A DNA stretch of 64,000 bases from an uncultured Gemmatimonadales bacterium. Its GTDB lineage: Bacteria > Gemmatimonadota > Gemmatimonadetes > Gemmatimonadales > GWC2-71-9. Each line of letters begins with the position of its first letter. Position 1 is the stretch's first letter. The stretch lies in the NCBI GenBank assembly GCA_963730185.1, contig CAVSQW010000009.1, positions 32,001 through 96,000 on the forward strand. The letters are read 5' to 3'. A program made the position numbers and the translations under genes. The notes beneath the pieces were generated by a model, which saw only the letters and a program-made list of their open reading frames with translations, did not search any database and was not told the DNA's origin. Of this stretch, positions 29,243-48,835 are shown in pieces.

Positions 29243-29263
29243 TCCGGCTGTAGATTGGCGGGC

Positions 29264-30315
29264 ATGGCGGCGCCTTCCTTCGACTCCTTCTTCCGAGGCC
29301 TCCTCAAGGGCGAGGTCCCACCCGCCGTGTACCTCTACGGACCCGAAGACGTCCTGAAAGAGGAAGCGGTGAGCGAGCTGCTCGAGCGGACGCTCGACCC
29401 CTCGCTCCGCGACTTCAACCTCGACGAAGTCTCGGCCACGTCACTAGATCCGGAACGGGCCGAGACGCTGTGCACCACCCTGCCGATGATGGCCGAGCGG
29501 CGGGTAGTGATCGTCCGGGAGGTCGAAGCCTGGAACCGGCGGGCCAAGGCCAAGGGAGTGATCCTTCGCTATCTGGAGCACCCCGCCCCCGAAACCGTGC
29601 TGGTGTTGGTGCAGAGTGCGGGCGACGCCGCCCCCGACAAGGAGCTCGCGGCCCGGACCATGGCCGTCTCCGCCGACCCGCTGCCGCCCCAACGGGCGCT
29701 CAAGTGGCTTCTCCGGCACGCCAAGCGGCTCGGGGTGACGCTCGACGAGGACGCGGCAGACCACCTGGTCCGGGCCACCGACGCCAGCCTGAGCCTCCTC
29801 CGGACCGAACTGGCCAAGCTCAGTGGACTGGCCGGCGACGAGCCCCTGAGCCTTGACCGGGTGGCTGCGCTCCTGGGTGTTCGCCACGGCGAGACCCAGT
29901 TCGACTGGCGCGATCTCGTCCTCGGGGTCAGACGGCCAAGGCGGTGACGGTACTGCCGCACCTCCTGGCCCAGAGCGGGGTGACCGGGGTGTCGCTGGTG
30001 ATGATGCTCGGGACCAGTCTCGTCGGTCTCGGGTTGGCCCGGGCCCATTACGATCGGGGCGCCCAGGGAAGCGCGCTGGCGGGAGCCGTCAAACGATCGC
30101 TGTTCCAGGCCCGTCCCGCGCGAGTGAGCTACGACGCCGCGGCGCGGGAGTGGAGCGCCTTGGCACCGGAGTGGCCGGCCCGCCGGATCGAAGCGGCTCT
30201 CCGCGCGACGCTCGCCGCCGACGAGCGTCTCAAGAGTACGACCGTGTCGGACGAACGGGGGATCCTGATGGATCTGATTCTCGAGCTGGGCTGGTCCCGG
30301 AAGGCGGCCGCATGA
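29264..30315 (+). CDS. holA: DNA polymerase III delta subunit, frameshifted at GGGG 29924-29927
   Basis: YLYGPEDVL, DFNLD, TLPMMAERRVVIV, ELAKL. The C-terminal part (ADERLKST) lies in the -1 frame (ORF 29944..30315). Confidence 0.88.
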
Positions 30316-43284: not shown

Positions 43285-43637
43285 CCTGCCCCACTGTGCT
43301 GCCGAGCCGCCCACGAGAGCAACTCGTCCCGAAGCTGATCGAACCCCGCGCCGTAGGCTTCACGCCGGGTTCGGATCACGAGATCCAGGGGGCCGACCTC
43401 GCCCCGCAACCGCCGCCGCCAAATTTCCTTGAGGCGGCGGCGCAAACGATTGCGGGCCACCGCCGTGGACTGGAACTTCGGGACGATCAGTCCCAGTCTC
43501 GGGTAGCCCGCCTCATTCACCGCCCAGACGAGATCCACGTGCGACAAGCGCCGCCGCCGGCCTCGGTCGAATACCCGCTGATAGTCGTCCGCTTTCCCCA
43601 GCCGACCGGCCGGCGAAAGACGCTCGGACGACGTTAC
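43281..43637 (-). CDS. rnpA: Ribonuclease P protein component (start codon uncertain)
   Basis: [32 protein letters not shown] (RNR motif); lies between rpmH and yidD. Confidence 0.9.
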
Positions 43638-43795
43638 CGACCTCCGTGCTTCGAGGCGATGCGGACGGTGAGCCGTTTCCGCCCCTTTTTCCGGCGGCGG
43701 CTGAGCACGGCACGACCCCAACGATCGGCCATCCGGGCACGGAACCCGTGACGGTTCACTCGTTTGCGATTTCGGGGCCGGTAGGTCGGCTGCAT
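43634..43795 (-). CDS. rpmH: 50S ribosomal protein L34 (absent from the ORF track)
   Basis: Manual translation [62 protein letters not shown]. Confidence 0.97.
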
Positions 43796-43826
43796 ATTAC
43801 TCCTCGACGCCTCCAGTGAGCCCGAA

Positions 43827-43856
43827 AAGCTAGCCCAGCCACGGGCTTGCGGTCAA
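43827..43856 (-). promoter_or_regulatory. Putative rpmH operon promoter
   Basis: TTGACC(43856-43851)-18 bp-TAGCTT(43832-43827), back-to-back with the dnaA promoter. Confidence 0.5.
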
Positions 43857-43858
43857 GG

Positions 43859-43887
43859 TTGACTTTTCCACACGCGGGTCGTAGAAT
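43859..43887 (+). promoter_or_regulatory. dnaA promoter with an embedded perfect DnaA box
   Basis: TTGACT(43859-43864)-17 bp-TAGAAT(43882-43887). TTTTCCACA at 43864-43872 matches TTWTNCACA. Confidence 0.8.
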
Positions 43888-43939
43888 CGCCTCCCCCTTC
43901 CGACCTTCCCCTACGAGTCAGGGTTTGCACCGAGGCGAA

Positions 43940-45334
43940 ATGCAGCTCTCCCCCAAAGAGGCGTGGAAGCGCATTCTCGACGAGGCCCGCCGCGAGCTTC
44001 CCGAGCAGGCCGTCGCCACCTGGCTGGCCCCGGCCGAGCCGCTCGAGCTCCAGGACGGCAAGCTCACCCTCGGGGTTCCGGACGAATTCGCGGTCAAGTG
44101 GAACGAGACCAAGCACGGCTCCCTGCTGTCCCGGCTGGCCGAACAGGTCGTGGGTCAACGGATCACCGTGGCCTTCCGGGTGCCGGATGACCGGTTCCAG
44201 CGCCCCCAGATCGACTTCTTCGTAGCCCAACCGGACGACGACGGGCCGGTCACGCCGGCCGTCCGCCCGACCCACTCGCCGCTCCCGCTCAACGAGCGTT
44301 ACACCTTCGATTCGTTCGTGATCGGCAAGTCCAACGAGCTCGCGGCGGCCGCCGCTTATGCGGTCGCCGAGACCCCCGGCAAGACCTACAACCCGCTGTT
44401 CATCTACGGCGGCACCGGCCTTGGCAAGACGCACCTGATGCAGGCCATCGCCCACGCGGTTCTCGGGAAGGCCCCGGGAACCCGTCTGGTCTACGTCGGC
44501 GCCGAGCATTTCATCAACGAGGTGATCGAGGGCATCCACGGTCGGACCATGCCGGAGCTCCGGCGACGATACCGCACCGAGGTGGACCTGTTCCTCGTCG
44601 ACGACGTGCACTTCCTGGAAGGCAAGGAGGCAACCCAGGAGGAGTTCTTCCATACGTTCAACACGCTGTACGAGGCCCAGAAGCAGATCGTCCTGACCTC
44701 GGACCGGCCCCCGAAGGACATGCCCGGACTCGAGGCACGCCTGGTCAGCCGGTTCGAATGGGGCATGGTCGCCGACATCGGCCAGCCCGACTTGGAACAC
44801 CGGATCGCCATCCTCCGGAAGAAACAAGAGCAGGACCACCTCGAGACCACGATTCCCGACGAGGTCCTGAGCTTCATTGCGGAACATGTGTTTTCGAATG
44901 TCCGGGAGCTCGAGGGTTGCATCATCAAGCTGCTCCTCTACGCCTCGCTCCGGCATCGCGAGGTCACCATCGACCTGGCCCGAGAAGCCCTCGCGGATCG
45001 GATTCGTCCCGGGCCCCAGCTCCACGAGGGCACGCCCAAGGCCTTGCCGACGATCGACAAGGTGCAAGACGTCGTGGCCCGCCGGTGGGGCGTGACGCCG
45101 GAGGGACTCCGCTCGAAGGCGCGGATCAAGAGCTTGACGGTGCCCCGACAGATCGCGATGTACCTCGCCCGCGAGGTGTTGAACATGCAGCTGGTCGAGA
45201 TCGGGCAGGCGTTCGGCGGGCGCGATCACTCGACCGTCATTCACAGTGTGGACAAGGTCCAGCGGCAGCTGTCGCGCGACCGTGCATTCCGAGACCGAGT
45301 CGACTCGGCGCGGGCCGAGTTGACGAGCGGGTGA
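43940..45334 (+). CDS. dnaA: Chromosomal replication initiator DnaA
   Basis: YTFDSFV, YNPLFIYGGTGLGKTHL, DDVHFL, NVRELEG, GGRDHSTV. ATG 43940. Confidence 0.98.
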   Translation: MQLSPKEAWKRILDEARRELPEQAVATWLAPAEPLELQDGKLTLGVPDEFAVKWNETKHGSLLSRLAEQVVGQRITVAFRVPDDRFQRPQIDFFVAQPDDDGPVTPAVRPTHSPLPLNERYTFDSFVIGKSNELAAAAAYAVAETPGKTYNPLFIYGGTGLGKTHLMQAIAHAVLGKAPGTRLVYVGAEHFINEVIEGIHGRTMPELRRRYRTEVDLFLVDDVHFLEGKEATQEEFFHTFNTLYEAQKQIVLTSDRPPKDMPGLEARLVSRFEWGMVADIGQPDLEHRIAILRKKQEQDHLETTIPDEVLSFIAEHVFSNVRELEGCIIKLLLYASLRHREVTIDLAREALADRIRPGPQLHEGTPKALPTIDKVQDVVARRWGVTPEGLRSKARIKSLTVPRQIAMYLAREVLNMQLVEIGQAFGGRDHSTVIHSVDKVQRQLSRDRAFRDRVDSARAELTSG

Positions 45335-45392
45335 AGGCGAGAGAACCCGCGTCACCCGCCAGAGTGTTCGCAGCGATGGGGAGTGTGATCGC

Positions 45393-46505
45393 ATGAAGTT
45401 CACCATCACCCGAGAGAAGCTGCACGAGGGCCTGGGAGCGGTGGCCGGAAGCGTGCCGTCCAAAGCCACGCTTCCGGTCCTCTCTCACCTTCTCGTGGAA
45501 GCCACCAAGGATGGGATCCGCCTGTCCGGCACGGATCTGGACATCGCCGTCACCACGGTGATCCCGGCCGAGGTCAACCAGGAGGGGGCCGCGATGGTGC
45601 CCGCCCGGAAGCTCGCCGAGATCGTGCGGGAGCTGCCCAGCGCCGCGATTCGGGTCACCAGCTCGGGCGAGCAGCGAGTCCAGATCGAGTGTGGACGCTC
45701 GCGTTTCAAGTTGCTCGGTCTCTCCCGCGAGGAGTTTCCGGCCTTTCCGGCCGTCACGTTCGAAGGCGGCTGGAACGTCGTGGCCAGGGACCTTCAAAAG
45801 CTCATCACCCATGTGGCCTTCGCGGCCAGCACCGAGGAGAGCCGCCCGATCCTGAACGGGGTGCTCTGGGAGCTCCGAAGCGACCGGATGCGGATGGTCG
45901 CCACCAACGGGCATCGGCTGGCCCGCATGGACATGCCGCTCAAGGGTGCCGGCCAGGCCGACCTGATCGTGCCGCCCAAGGCCCTCGATCAGATCCGCCG
46001 ACTCTTCGGCCCGGACGAAGAGGTCGAGATCGCCCGGAGTGACAACCACCTCGGATTTCGCTCGGCCGCAACTCAGGTGTTCACCCGGCTCATCGAGGGG
46101 CCGTACCCGCCCTTGGAGGTTCTCGACAAGCTACTGCGCGAGAACGACAAGATCGTGACGGTGGACCGGACCGCCTTCACGTCGGCCATCCGGCGGATGA
46201 GCATCGTCGCCAGCGACCAGACCCACCGGATCCGCCTGGCGTTCTCCAACGGGGCCTGCAAGCTCTCGGTCACCACGCCTGATCTGGGCGACGCCCAGGA
46301 AGAGATGTCCGTCTCCTACGACGGCGATCCCCTGGAGATTGGATTCAACGCCTCGTACCTGTTGGAGGTCCTCAAGTTCATGCCGACCGACGAGGTAAGG
46401 CTGAGGTTCAAGGCTCCTGAACGCGGGGCCACGTGTGAGCCGGTGGGCTGGGACGACCCGGCGAGCTACCTCGCCCTGGTAATGCCTCTCCGGTTGCTCG
46501 ATTAG
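45393..46505 (+). CDS. dnaN: DNA polymerase III beta clamp, copy 1 (variant pocket segment)
   Basis: GTDLD, PARKL, RPILNG, ATNGHRL, GFNASY, VMPLRL. The usual PxYxxVIP segment is replaced by PPLEVLDKLL. Confidence 0.95.
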   Translation: MKFTITREKLHEGLGAVAGSVPSKATLPVLSHLLVEATKDGIRLSGTDLDIAVTTVIPAEVNQEGAAMVPARKLAEIVRELPSAAIRVTSSGEQRVQIECGRSRFKLLGLSREEFPAFPAVTFEGGWNVVARDLQKLITHVAFAASTEESRPILNGVLWELRSDRMRMVATNGHRLARMDMPLKGAGQADLIVPPKALDQIRRLFGPDEEVEIARSDNHLGFRSAATQVFTRLIEGPYPPLEVLDKLLRENDKIVTVDRTAFTSAIRRMSIVASDQTHRIRLAFSNGACKLSVTTPDLGDAQEEMSVSYDGDPLEIGFNASYLLEVLKFMPTDEVRLRFKAPERGATCEPVGWDDPASYLALVMPLRLLD

Positions 46506-46530
46506 GTCGATCCGACTGAAACAGCAATGG

Positions 46531-46654
46531 TTCCGCGGTCGCGCCTCACTCGACTGTGTTTCTTACGGTGTGGACAAAGGTCGCGCTTCGGTTGTCGCCC
46601 GACCACGCGCTCCGACAACGAGTTGACTCGGCTCGCGGGCAAGCCGACCAAGTG
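46531..46654 (+). pseudogene. Degenerate remnant of the dnaA 3' end (domain IV)
   Basis: DNA aligns to 45212-45334. Translation HSTVFLTVWTKVALRLSPDHALRQRVDSARGQ versus DnaA HSTVIHSVDKVQRQLSRDRAFRDRVDSARAE, with indels. Confidence 0.85.
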
Positions 46655-46870
46655 GCCGACCATGCTGGGTCGTGTGAGTTGCTGTGGGTGACGTGGAAGA
46701 CGCTGGAAAACCCCACGCCTCTCCACGAAATCCGCACTGCCAACAAACGACGTTCTGGCGATGGGGACGGTAAGCATCGTGCCGGTGGGGAGTTGGGCGA
46801 CCGCTCAACAATGGCGCCCCTCTACGATTACTACGAGTTCTATTAAACTGTTGCAGTCTTGTAGAAATAT
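46569..46870 (+). other. Candidate oriC (DnaA-box cluster, GC spacer, DnaA-trio-like repeats, AT-rich tract)
   Basis: TGTGGACAA 46569-46577. Degenerate boxes at 46683, 46692, 46702, 46719, 46728. GGCGCCCC 46813-46820 then CTACGATTACTACGA 46822-46836 and an AT-rich stretch to about 46870. Confidence 0.6.
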
Positions 46871-46894
46871 GGCGAGTTCGCGGAGCGTGAGCGC

Positions 46895-48004
46895 ATGAAG
46901 TTCACCATCACCCGAGAGAAGCTGCACGAGGGTCTGGGAGCGGTGACCGCAAGCGTGCCGTCCAAGACCACGCTTCCGGTGCTCTCCAACATCCTCGTGG
47001 AGGCCACCCAGGACGGGATTCGCCTGTCCGGCACCGACCTGGACATCGCCGTGACGACGGTGATCCCGGCCGAAGTCGATCAGGAGGGTGCCACCACCCT
47101 CCCTGCCCGGAAGCTTGCCGAGATCGTGCGGGAGCTGCCCAGCGCCGCGATTCGGGTCACCAGCTCGGGCGAGCAACGGGTCCAGATCGAATGCGGCCGA
47201 TCGCGGTTCAAGCTGCTCGGACTATCGCGGGAGGAGTTTCCCTCGTTTCCGGCGGTTAAGTTCGAGGGCGGCTGGAACGTCGTGGCCAAGGACCTTCAAA
47301 AGCTCATCACCCATGTGGCCTTCGCGGCCAGCACCGAGGAGAGCCGCCCGATCCTGAACGGGGTGCTCTGGGAGCTCCGGAGCGACCGGATGCGGATGGT
47401 CGCCACCAACGGGCATCGCCTGGCCCGCATGGACGTGCCGCTCAAGGGTGCCGGGGGTCAGGCCGACCTGATCGTGCCGCCCAAGGCCCTCGATCAGATC
47501 CGCCGCCTTTTCAGGCCGGACGAGGAGATCGAGATCGCCCGGAGCGACAATCACCTGGGGTTTCGATCGGCGGGCACCCAGGTGTTCACCCGACTCATCG
47601 AGGGGCCCTACCCGCCTTACGAGCAGGTCATTCCCCGCGAGAACGATAAGATCGTGACGGTGGACCGGACCGCCTTCGCGTCGGCCATCCGGCGGATGAG
47701 CATCGTCGCCAGCGACCAGACTCACCGGATCCGCCTGGCGTTGACCAACGGGGCCTGCAAGCTTTCGGTCACCACGCCCGACCTGGGCGACGCCCAGGAA
47801 GAGATGTCCGTCTCCTACGACGGCGACCCCCTCGAGATTGGGTTCAACGCCTCGTACCTGCTCGAGATCTTGAAGGCAATGCCGACCGACGAGGTTCGGA
47901 TGACCTTCAAGGCGCCGGAGCGCGCGGCCACCTGTGAGCCCGTCGGCTGGGACGACCCGGCTAGCTACCTGTCGTTGGTGATGCCACTCCGCCTGCTGGA
48001 CTAG
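46895..48004 (+). CDS. dnaN: DNA polymerase III beta clamp, copy 2 (canonical)
   Basis: All clamp motifs present, including RLIEGPYPPYEQVIP and VMPLRL. Confidence 0.97.
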   Translation: MKFTITREKLHEGLGAVTASVPSKTTLPVLSNILVEATQDGIRLSGTDLDIAVTTVIPAEVDQEGATTLPARKLAEIVRELPSAAIRVTSSGEQRVQIECGRSRFKLLGLSREEFPSFPAVKFEGGWNVVAKDLQKLITHVAFAASTEESRPILNGVLWELRSDRMRMVATNGHRLARMDVPLKGAGGQADLIVPPKALDQIRRLFRPDEEIEIARSDNHLGFRSAGTQVFTRLIEGPYPPYEQVIPRENDKIVTVDRTAFASAIRRMSIVASDQTHRIRLALTNGACKLSVTTPDLGDAQEEMSVSYDGDPLEIGFNASYLLEILKAMPTDEVRMTFKAPERAATCEPVGWDDPASYLSLVMPLRLLD

Positions 48005-48835
48005 CGCGACCCGTTCGAGTCGGATTCCGGATCGTCGCTGTCGAGTGGAACCCGGATCGGTTCTCCCTGCATCCGTCGGAGAATCAGTTGCTGGCGCCAC
48101 CGCATCCGGCCCGCCCGATAGCGAGGGTTTGAGCTGAGCGGGAAGGGGAGCGTTCCAGCGAGAGCCGCGGCCTCGTCGGCGGTCAGGTTGGCGGCCGGCC
48201 GGCCGAAGTAGTACCGGCTGGCAGCCTCCACCCCCCAGATCTCCGGGCCGAACTCGACGACGTTGAGGTAGAGCTCCAACACCCGGTTCTTGCCAAGCGC
48301 CCACTCCAACCGATAGGCCGTCACCGCCTCCTTCGCTTTCCGAAGTGGGTTCCGCGAGGGGGAGAGGTACAGGTTCTTGGCGAGCTGTTGGGTTATCGTG
48401 CTGGCTCCTCGGATCCGATCCCGGCGCGACCACGCCCGTCCCAAATCCCGGAGCATCTCGTCGCGATCCCGCGGATTGGTCCAGGTGAAGTCGTCCCTCC
48501 GGTAGCCGAGCGCCTCCCGGATCGCTTGGTAGTCGATTCCGCCGTGTTCGTAGAAGCGGTGGTCCTCCGCCACGATCGCGGCCGCTAGGACGCCGGGTGC
48601 GATCGCGCTGAGGGGCACCGGCTGATAGAGGCGCGGAAGGACCCCGTCCTTGGCGTCACGACGGCGCTCCGGATGGGACGCCATCTGGGCTGCCTGGGAT
48701 CGTCGGAGGCTCATGAACGCGGTCTGATGGGGCCAGAACCAGCGGTACCAGATTGGGGGAGGCCAGACCGCCACCAGCCAGAGCGCGAAAGCGGCCCCGA
48801 ACAGGAGAGCGAGCTTGACCAGGGCCCTTGGCCAC
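48001..48835 (-). CDS. mtgA: Monofunctional peptidoglycan transglycosylase (start uncertain)
   Basis: GT51 motifs EDHRFYEHGGID, GASTITQQLAKNLYL, RKAKE, LELYLN. The in-frame upstream start lies beyond a terminator; an out-of-frame GTG at 48835 may be the start. Confidence 0.88.

Follow-up and report, generated by a model that had tools for sequence, protein, structure and literature searches.

The Locus

The window analysed here, a stretch of 64,000 nucleotides from the genome of an uncultured Gemmatimonadales bacterium (G000), carries two genes for the beta sliding clamp next to the gene of the replication initiator. The initiator gene, dnaA (43940..45334, PF00308), is followed after 58 bases by dnaN1 (45393..46505, 370 residues), whose product is a clamp with an altered partner pocket, and further downstream by dnaN2 (46895..48004, 369 residues), which encodes a canonical clamp; all three lie on the forward strand. 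DnaN1 matches TIGR00663 over its full length (residues 1-368) with 297.6 bits against a cut-off of 137.65, DnaN2 reaches 325.3 bits, and a tblastn search found exactly these two dnaN copies in the genome. Upstream of dnaA, on the same strand, a sigma70-like match, TTGACT-17-TAGAAT (43859..43887; one found, 0.4 expected in shuffled sequences), may be the promoter of dnaA-dnaN1; a search of 43300-48300 for terminator-like sites found none.

The space between the two clamp genes holds two features. The first is a decayed, forward-strand copy of the dnaA 3′ end, covering its last ~120 bases (46524..46650; 75% identical, with 4-5 gap positions). Its alignment score of 272 compares with a maximum of 140 among shuffles (0 of 1000), and blastn gives it an E-value of 2e-11. 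The second, at 46651..46894, shows homology to the sequence separating dnaA from dnaN in single-copy relatives and contains an AT-rich stretch; it is the likely oriC. Imperfect DnaA-trio-like repeats are seen within it at 46822-46837 (consensus from the available part of PMC8287927), and the cumulative GC-skew minimum of the contig falls at window position 45048, 1.6 kb away. A DnaA-box-like TTGTCCACA has been retained inside the dnaA remnant (46569..46577, reverse strand) and a second one lies in dnaA at 45247-45255, while the pattern is not enriched across the window (6 found, 6.4 expected).

Judged by its sequence, the layout dnaA-dnaN1-(dnaA remnant, likely oriC)-dnaN2 is a tandem duplication, and the remnant appears to mark the junction. 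The duplicated unit would have consisted of the dnaA end, the origin and dnaN, with the first origin lost afterwards, leaving the short gap in front of dnaN1 and a single origin between the two clamp genes. Recombination between the copies would then remove the sole origin, which presumably keeps the pair from collapsing in the usual way.

Neither recF nor gyrB follows dnaN in the neighbourhood of 46005-48004. A convergent open reading frame starts at 48001, and its product resembles a monofunctional transglycosylase. Elsewhere in the genome (G000:C2:88858-91950) lies the gene of a protein in which a DnaA-type AAA+ domain occurs twice in tandem, a possible regulator of initiation, which was matched in three of the four relatives searched (G003, G015 and G017).

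The Altered Pocket Wall

The two clamp proteins are 90.8% identical. An alignment of 371 codons has 263 identical positions, 74 with a silent difference and 34 with a different residue or a gap, and seven of these 34 are packed into a segment of eight codons at 46113..46136 (forward strand). There dnaN1 reads, in frame, TTG GAG GTT CTC GAC AAG CTA CTG, or LEVLDKLL, where dnaN2 has TAC GAG CAG GTC ATT CCC, or YEQVIP; the flanks, PYPP before and RE after, are common to both. The codon alignment thus confirms the in-frame replacement with two added residues described in an earlier note on this DNA, and the codons which that note had singled out as atypical, TTG, GTT and CTA, are indeed rare within their families in 1837 long open reading frames (5.6%, 4.4% and 0.7%). 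The motifs ATNGHRL and VMPLRL are the same in both copies, as had been said.

Aligned with the E. coli gene, the segment corresponds to Y244-P249, and the changes in DnaN1 are Y244L, Q>V at the R246 equivalent, V247L, I>L at the L248 equivalent, P249L, and the two-residue insertion. The proposed correspondence therefore holds for Y244, R246, V247, L248 and P249; P242, which had been counted with them, is itself retained. DnaN1 lacks the canonical pocket feature formed by Y244, V247 and P249 (Y>L, V>L, P>L, two inserted residues). Of the 18 other pocket positions checked it keeps 17, the exception being A>G at the S346 equivalent. At the positions that we take to form the dimer interface, the segments are identical or nearly so in the two proteins. 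The view that the segment lines the partner pocket is supported by the available parts of PMC7261172 and bioRxiv 2025.08.20.671105, which place V247 and Y244 in that pocket. As to where the segment came from, it resembles an LEVLK stretch further along the gene no more than chance would allow (p 0.14 and 0.38), and the genome holds no match to it with fewer than five mismatches.

Assembly error had to be excluded for this segment because frameshift-type errors occur in other genes of the assembly. The clamp-loader delta gene holA (G000:C9:61243-62100, window ~29243-30100) is frameshifted after ~226 residues, probably by an assembly error since the gene is essential, and dnaE2 (G000:C3:33514-36761) is broken in two near residue 518 by a shift of one frame, which may be an error or a pseudogene. 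In addition, DnaN1 (P0001) is a singleton among ~15 billion proteins. Both points would favour an artefact, whether compensating indels or a false duplication. The evidence on the other side comes from strain X1, ~93% identical and sequenced in another run, in which a contig of 216 bases (depth 4.7, 14 letters different) spans the segment without a gap and encodes the same LEVLDKLL with three silent changes, the rare CTA being CTG there. Eleven of the 14 differences are listed; ten of them are silent, including all three inside the segment, and the only non-silent one restores the consensus glycine at 226. The predominance of silent changes has a p of 0.018 for the segment and 1e-5 for the whole contig. 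Other contigs cover the remnant-bearing spacer, neither alternative frame of dnaN1 restores YEQVIP, and the 74 silent codon differences argue against a false duplication. Within the limit of one low-depth contig, the segment is not an assembly error on this sequence evidence: the indel error that the earlier note had named as a possible undoing of its claim is refuted, and we regard an artefact of any kind as vanishingly improbable.

Tandem Pairs and Altered Pockets in Relatives

The search for the variant in relatives, which had been proposed at the outset, was successful in part: LEVLDKLL is present in strain X1, but the region search returned P0001 alone among 130 candidates. The same wall is nevertheless changed in other genomes. 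Of 22 genomes of the genus, three have the tandem layout (G000, G010 and G003), 18 have a single full-length clamp and one has a partial gene. G010 and G003 have the same gene order as G000, and their upstream copy reads NYEPGIPRD, that is, V247G. V247 is present in all 27 single-copy loci read (0 of 27 changed). The segment is readable in 219 close homologues: 208 have YEQVIP, three carry other single changes, and eight are changed at V247, five of them with EPGIP, two with EQGIP, and DnaN1. Three of these eight were shown to be upstream tandem copies. Two more, P0060 and P0137, are probably members of tandem pairs, as each lies on a contig equal in length to that of a canonical partner, and the other three came without genomic context. 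The further EPGIP proteins cluster in one clade with the G010 and G003 copies, the two EQGIP proteins fall elsewhere in the tree, and EPGIP is identical in five proteins across a dS of 0.38. The 130 distant clamps compared all have V, I or A at position 247; 127 of them keep P249, and none has an indel within 242-249.

Some smaller variations of the linker were also seen. P0053, P0051 and P0153 (G009) read PYEGVIPRD, NTEQVIPRE and NCDQVIPRE, the last coming from a single-copy genome. The V247G copies P0137, P0057, P0056, P0060 and P0062, which belong to two distant clades, have E251D in common, and several of them end in LLA rather than LLD; this may reflect either a shared ancestry of the allele or convergence. 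A region search with P0058 gave no new variant in the best 120 of 1114 matches.

Across the order, 388 of 401 genomes were matched; the 20 others seen with at least two matches have split genes or unlinked distant copies and no close tandem pair. A scan for the tandem pattern was too loose, such that among the loci listed, at least 231 (119 metagenome, 112 genome), three held dnaN and two were tandem, namely L174 (the same as G003) and L251 (G010-like). Chance loci led to five unrelated genomes, two of which have tandem dnaN genes. In the gammaproteobacterium G418 (L279/L275, G418:C100:14545-16821) the order is dnaA-dnaN-dnaN, and the dnaA-proximal copy, 50% identical, carries H175Q, V247A and M362S, while its neighbour is canonical. 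In the poribacterium G416 (L283/L280, G416:C1:5606691-5609148) there are five dnaN matches, among them a tandem pair that is 82% identical, with both pockets altered.

The history of the Gemmatimonadales pairs can be read in two ways. Trees in which DnaN1 and DnaN2 are sisters (support 100/96), together with the dnaA remnant, first pointed to an independent duplication in the G000 lineage. This reading has been weakened by a quartet analysis: over codons 1-320 the sites group the copies by genome (68 vs 7 vs 6), whereas over codons 321-372 they group by copy, placing the upstream copy of G000 with that of G010 (7 vs 2 vs 1; Fisher p 2e-5). The dnaA tree leaves the question unsettled (support 39) and the age of the remnant is ambiguous. 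From these sites and the probable conversion tract in G000, one older duplication followed by gene conversion seems at least as likely as a separate duplication in G000. Whichever history is correct, two different changes at one pocket wall are, as far as the sequences tell, fixed in upstream copies. The earlier note's idea of a specialised clamp gains from the finding that other upstream copies are altered at the same valine; its interpretation as a whole is only partly supported.

Selection and Probable Gene Conversion

Between the two copies dS is 0.39 and dN 0.048. When changes are polarised with outgroups and the segment is left out, the dnaN1 branch shows 18 replacements of a residue and 27 silent changes, which departs from neutrality with a p of 1e-6. 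The dnaN2 branch shows 8 and 32, and 15 silent changes stay unassigned to either copy. These counts give branch omega estimates of ~0.18 for dnaN1 and ~0.07 for dnaN2, the former being looser with a Fisher p of 0.06. Purifying selection thus acts on both copies, more relaxed on dnaN1, and the neutral evolution that would have emptied the earlier claim of its meaning is not what the substitution counts indicate.

The two genes have probably also exchanged sequence. A near-identical tract at 45788..45916 (forward strand), with runs of 90 and 38 bases (permutation p 0.005), is likely the result of gene conversion. The segment itself is an island of divergence, for its flanks match dnaN2 at 33 of 36 bases upstream and 102 of 105 downstream, compared with 88% overall, and the codon directly before it has a G000-specific state in both copies; the flanks were probably converted as well. 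Selection on dnaN1 extends to the segment and the C-terminal MPLRL, and the segment has stayed different between its nearly identical flanks.

These data bear on whether dnaN1 is simply a trapped duplicate in early decay, with the segment as a tolerated lesion. DnaN1 departs from the consensus of close homologues at 17 conserved columns, DnaN2 at 3, and the higher omega points in the same direction. However, the changes inside the segment in strain X1 are exclusively silent, most of the other DnaN1 changes are common in distant clamps (N32H in 17 of 130, V70 in 66 of 130), and other lineages have fixed changes at the same site. Decay is, in our view, a very improbable account of the pair.

Predicted Structure and Partner Binding

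An AlphaFold2 model of DnaN1 built with 140 sequences is an intact three-domain clamp (pLDDT 96.7), which superposes on the P. aeruginosa clamp 6PTH with a TM of 0.92 and an rmsd of 2.1; with a shallow alignment the fold reached a pLDDT of 44 only. The segment is predicted to form an alpha-helix at 242-249, the least confident block of the model (85), and the segment region, searched by itself against the PDB, gave no match. A complex prediction of DnaN1 with the QGSLF peptide of the genome's own DnaE scored 0.56, compared with 0.00 for the best control; at least 80% of the contacts agree between runs, and the pLDDT of the partner is at least 56. The mark for such a score is reached by 116 of 157 solved pairs and 2 of 215 mismatched ones, and at or below 0.60 by 18 of the 157 and by both mismatches. 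The predicted complex lends weak support to partner-peptide binding by DnaN1, and as similar complexes have been solved it may reflect memory.

The prediction leans, to the same slight degree, against the notion that DnaN1 is a filler subunit with a dead pocket, which would give the cell more rings without more active pockets, the helix being conserved only for folding. Such a role is conceivable, since subsite 1 could be occluded by the two extra residues together with the absence of Y244 and P249, the trapped origin accounts for the retention of the copy without any new function, and the upstream pocket of G418 is heavily degraded. On the other hand, every altered Gemmatimonadales copy checked retains H175, L177, M362, P363 and R365. 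This includes the pocket residues at the 3′ end, a part without conversion in which drift would be expected if the pocket were dead; the last 16 codons of dnaN1 and dnaN2 differ silently at ten positions and by a residue at one. We consider the filler role unlikely.

Comparison with Known Clamps

By HMM and fold DnaN1 is a beta clamp, and it perhaps works like GriR or Bacillus DnaN-2 while belonging to neither group. With the canonical clamps (TIGR00663; E. coli 1MMI, P. aeruginosa 6AMS and 6PTH) it shares the pocket floor, subsite 2, the C-terminal strand and the dimer interface; it differs in the replaced Y244-P249 wall, in an insertion found in 0 of 130 distant clamps, and in being a second copy that adjoins a canonical one. 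GriR and MypR of the griselimycin and mycoplanecin producers (available parts of PMC11621423, PMC10817943 and PMC10760148; PMC3335792 was also drawn on in part for these comparisons) are likewise second dnaN genes, and the linker altered in DnaN1 is the one contacted by griselimycin (PMC11621423). This comparison covers gene context and copy number. The differences are that G000 is not an actinobacterial producer and that dnaN1, a 91% identical tandem copy, sits between dnaA and the likely origin rather than in a biosynthetic cluster. With no such cluster beside it, dnaN1 is not of the GriR type, and the producer-like context that had been drawn from GriR finds no support.

The second chromosomal clamp of Bacillus, DnaN-2, is thought to differ in the functions that it supports, but it is ~40% similar to DnaN-1 according to the accessible text of PMC3290774, whereas the pair described here differs mainly at one pocket wall. 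The engineered E. coli beta+/betaC heterodimer, as described in the accessible text of PMC2685083, illustrates how a mixed ring might behave, with normal loading and replication and poor unloading. It is artificial, and its pocket was removed by deletion of the C-terminus, which DnaN1 keeps. The amplification of dnaN in M. smegmatis under griselimycin, cited in the part of PMC11621423 available, resembles our locus in that the dnaN region was gained in tandem. Its copies are identical and do not last, while those of G000 are old, diverged and fixed.

A Proposed Weakening of Subsite 1

Since strain X1 keeps the wall at the protein level, dnaN1 likely encodes a specialised clamp which would shed some pocket-binding molecules. 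The reading that we place first, tentatively and somewhat short of an even chance, is that DnaN1 is an intact, selected second subunit whose rebuilt wall likely weakens subsite 1, so that core replication would still be served while ligands with no hold beyond the pocket would be shed, an antagonist that binds the clamp being the likeliest of them. Removal of a valine in some lineages and insertion of a longer helix here would be opposite physical changes with a common result, weaker binding at subsite 1, and this would fit the loss of a contact better than the acquisition of a single new partner. Weakening of the pocket would cost ligands held by one motif more than partners that also touch the clamp elsewhere. 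Pol III and the clamp loader, having further contacts, could then keep working on DnaN1/DnaN1 or DnaN1/DnaN2 rings when DnaN2 is blocked by an antibiotic, a toxin, or a phage or transposon protein.

A foreign antagonist is ranked first because of the patchy distribution of the pair, which at 3 of 22 genomes of the genus fits an ecological pressure, and because of precedents. The ring of griselimycin occupies subsite 1, where it lies against this linker; griR is itself a second dnaN gene; and dnaN amplification is another route to resistance (PMC11621423, in the part available). In viable cells, the RipA toxin is suppressed by substitutions in the pocket, Y249N among them (PMC12795458); by residue offsets, this Y249 is probably the equivalent of F241, which adjoins the segment and is not in it. 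The amplicon of griselimycin-resistant M. smegmatis, mentioned above, reportedly includes the origin.

Several findings speak against the antagonist reading. The G000 genome, 82% complete, has no NRPS condensation domain (PF00668, 0 of 1 genome) and no SocA-family gene. The identity of EPGIP in five proteins gives no sign of an ongoing arms race. The V247 recurrences may not be independent, given that codons 321-372 group the G000 and G010 upstream copies, and the relaxation of dnaN1 relative to dnaN2 counts against it as well. In Rickettsia typhi, position 247 is a phenylalanine that makes more contacts with griselimycin (available part of PMC11621423), so a bulkier residue there need not weaken binding. 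The far more broken pocket of the G418 upstream copy fits a housekeeping or a pocket-dead role better.

The housekeeping role would be a division of labour. DnaN1, co-expressed with DnaA, would form mixed rings with DnaN2 that have one normal and one filtered pocket; Pol III would use the normal pocket, and the access of accessory partners (Pol IV, DnaE2/ImuB, MutS/L, and delta for unloading) would be limited. The near identity of the dimer interfaces is in keeping with this, as is the placement of the altered copy next to dnaA in G000, G010, G003 and G418, and so is the long stasis of the EPGIP motif. Precedents come from the one-pocket heterodimer of E. coli, which loads, supports Pol III normally and unloads poorly (PMC2685083), and from Bacillus DnaN-2, which supports replication and not some repair (PMC3290774), each as far as the available text goes. 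Yet 18 of the 22 genomes of the genus manage with a single full-length clamp, and the partner set (dnaE, dnaE2, the IMS family and holA) looks the same in three tandem and two single-copy genomes, a small sample in which no partner duplication specific to the tandem genomes was found. We rank such partner sorting second, only a little less likely than the shedding of an antagonist.

Possible Asymmetric Clamps and Their Occurrence

Among the papers listed in searches of the open literature, none deals with tandem chromosomal dnaN genes, with Gemmatimonadota clamps or with phage proteins that bind the pocket. As a drug target, the clamp pocket is considered almost unable to mutate and keep its function (PMC11621423, in the part available), and here rebuilt versions of one pocket wall have been kept by selection in a spare clamp copy, in at least two different ways. 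Because the pair differs almost only at the wall, it could serve as a natural experiment on ligands that depend on Y244-P249. It also bears on whether bacteria use asymmetric clamps, which is the long-standing toolbelt question. A broader possibility, one we think rather unlikely as it stands, is that natural clamps of a two-subunit type have evolved repeatedly in several phyla, a dnaA-proximal paralogue with a filtered pocket joining a normal subunit in asymmetric rings which would select among polymerases or keep inhibitors out. The Gemmatimonadales pair would then be locked in place by the flanking origin, with its wall shielded from gene conversion by selection.

Second clamp genes of another kind exist in the same order. 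Four genomes (G283, G357, G152 and G226; loci L270-L273) have an unlinked, distant second dnaN that is 31-48% identical and has no dnaA nearby, and in the one from G226 NGKQL replaces NGHRL.
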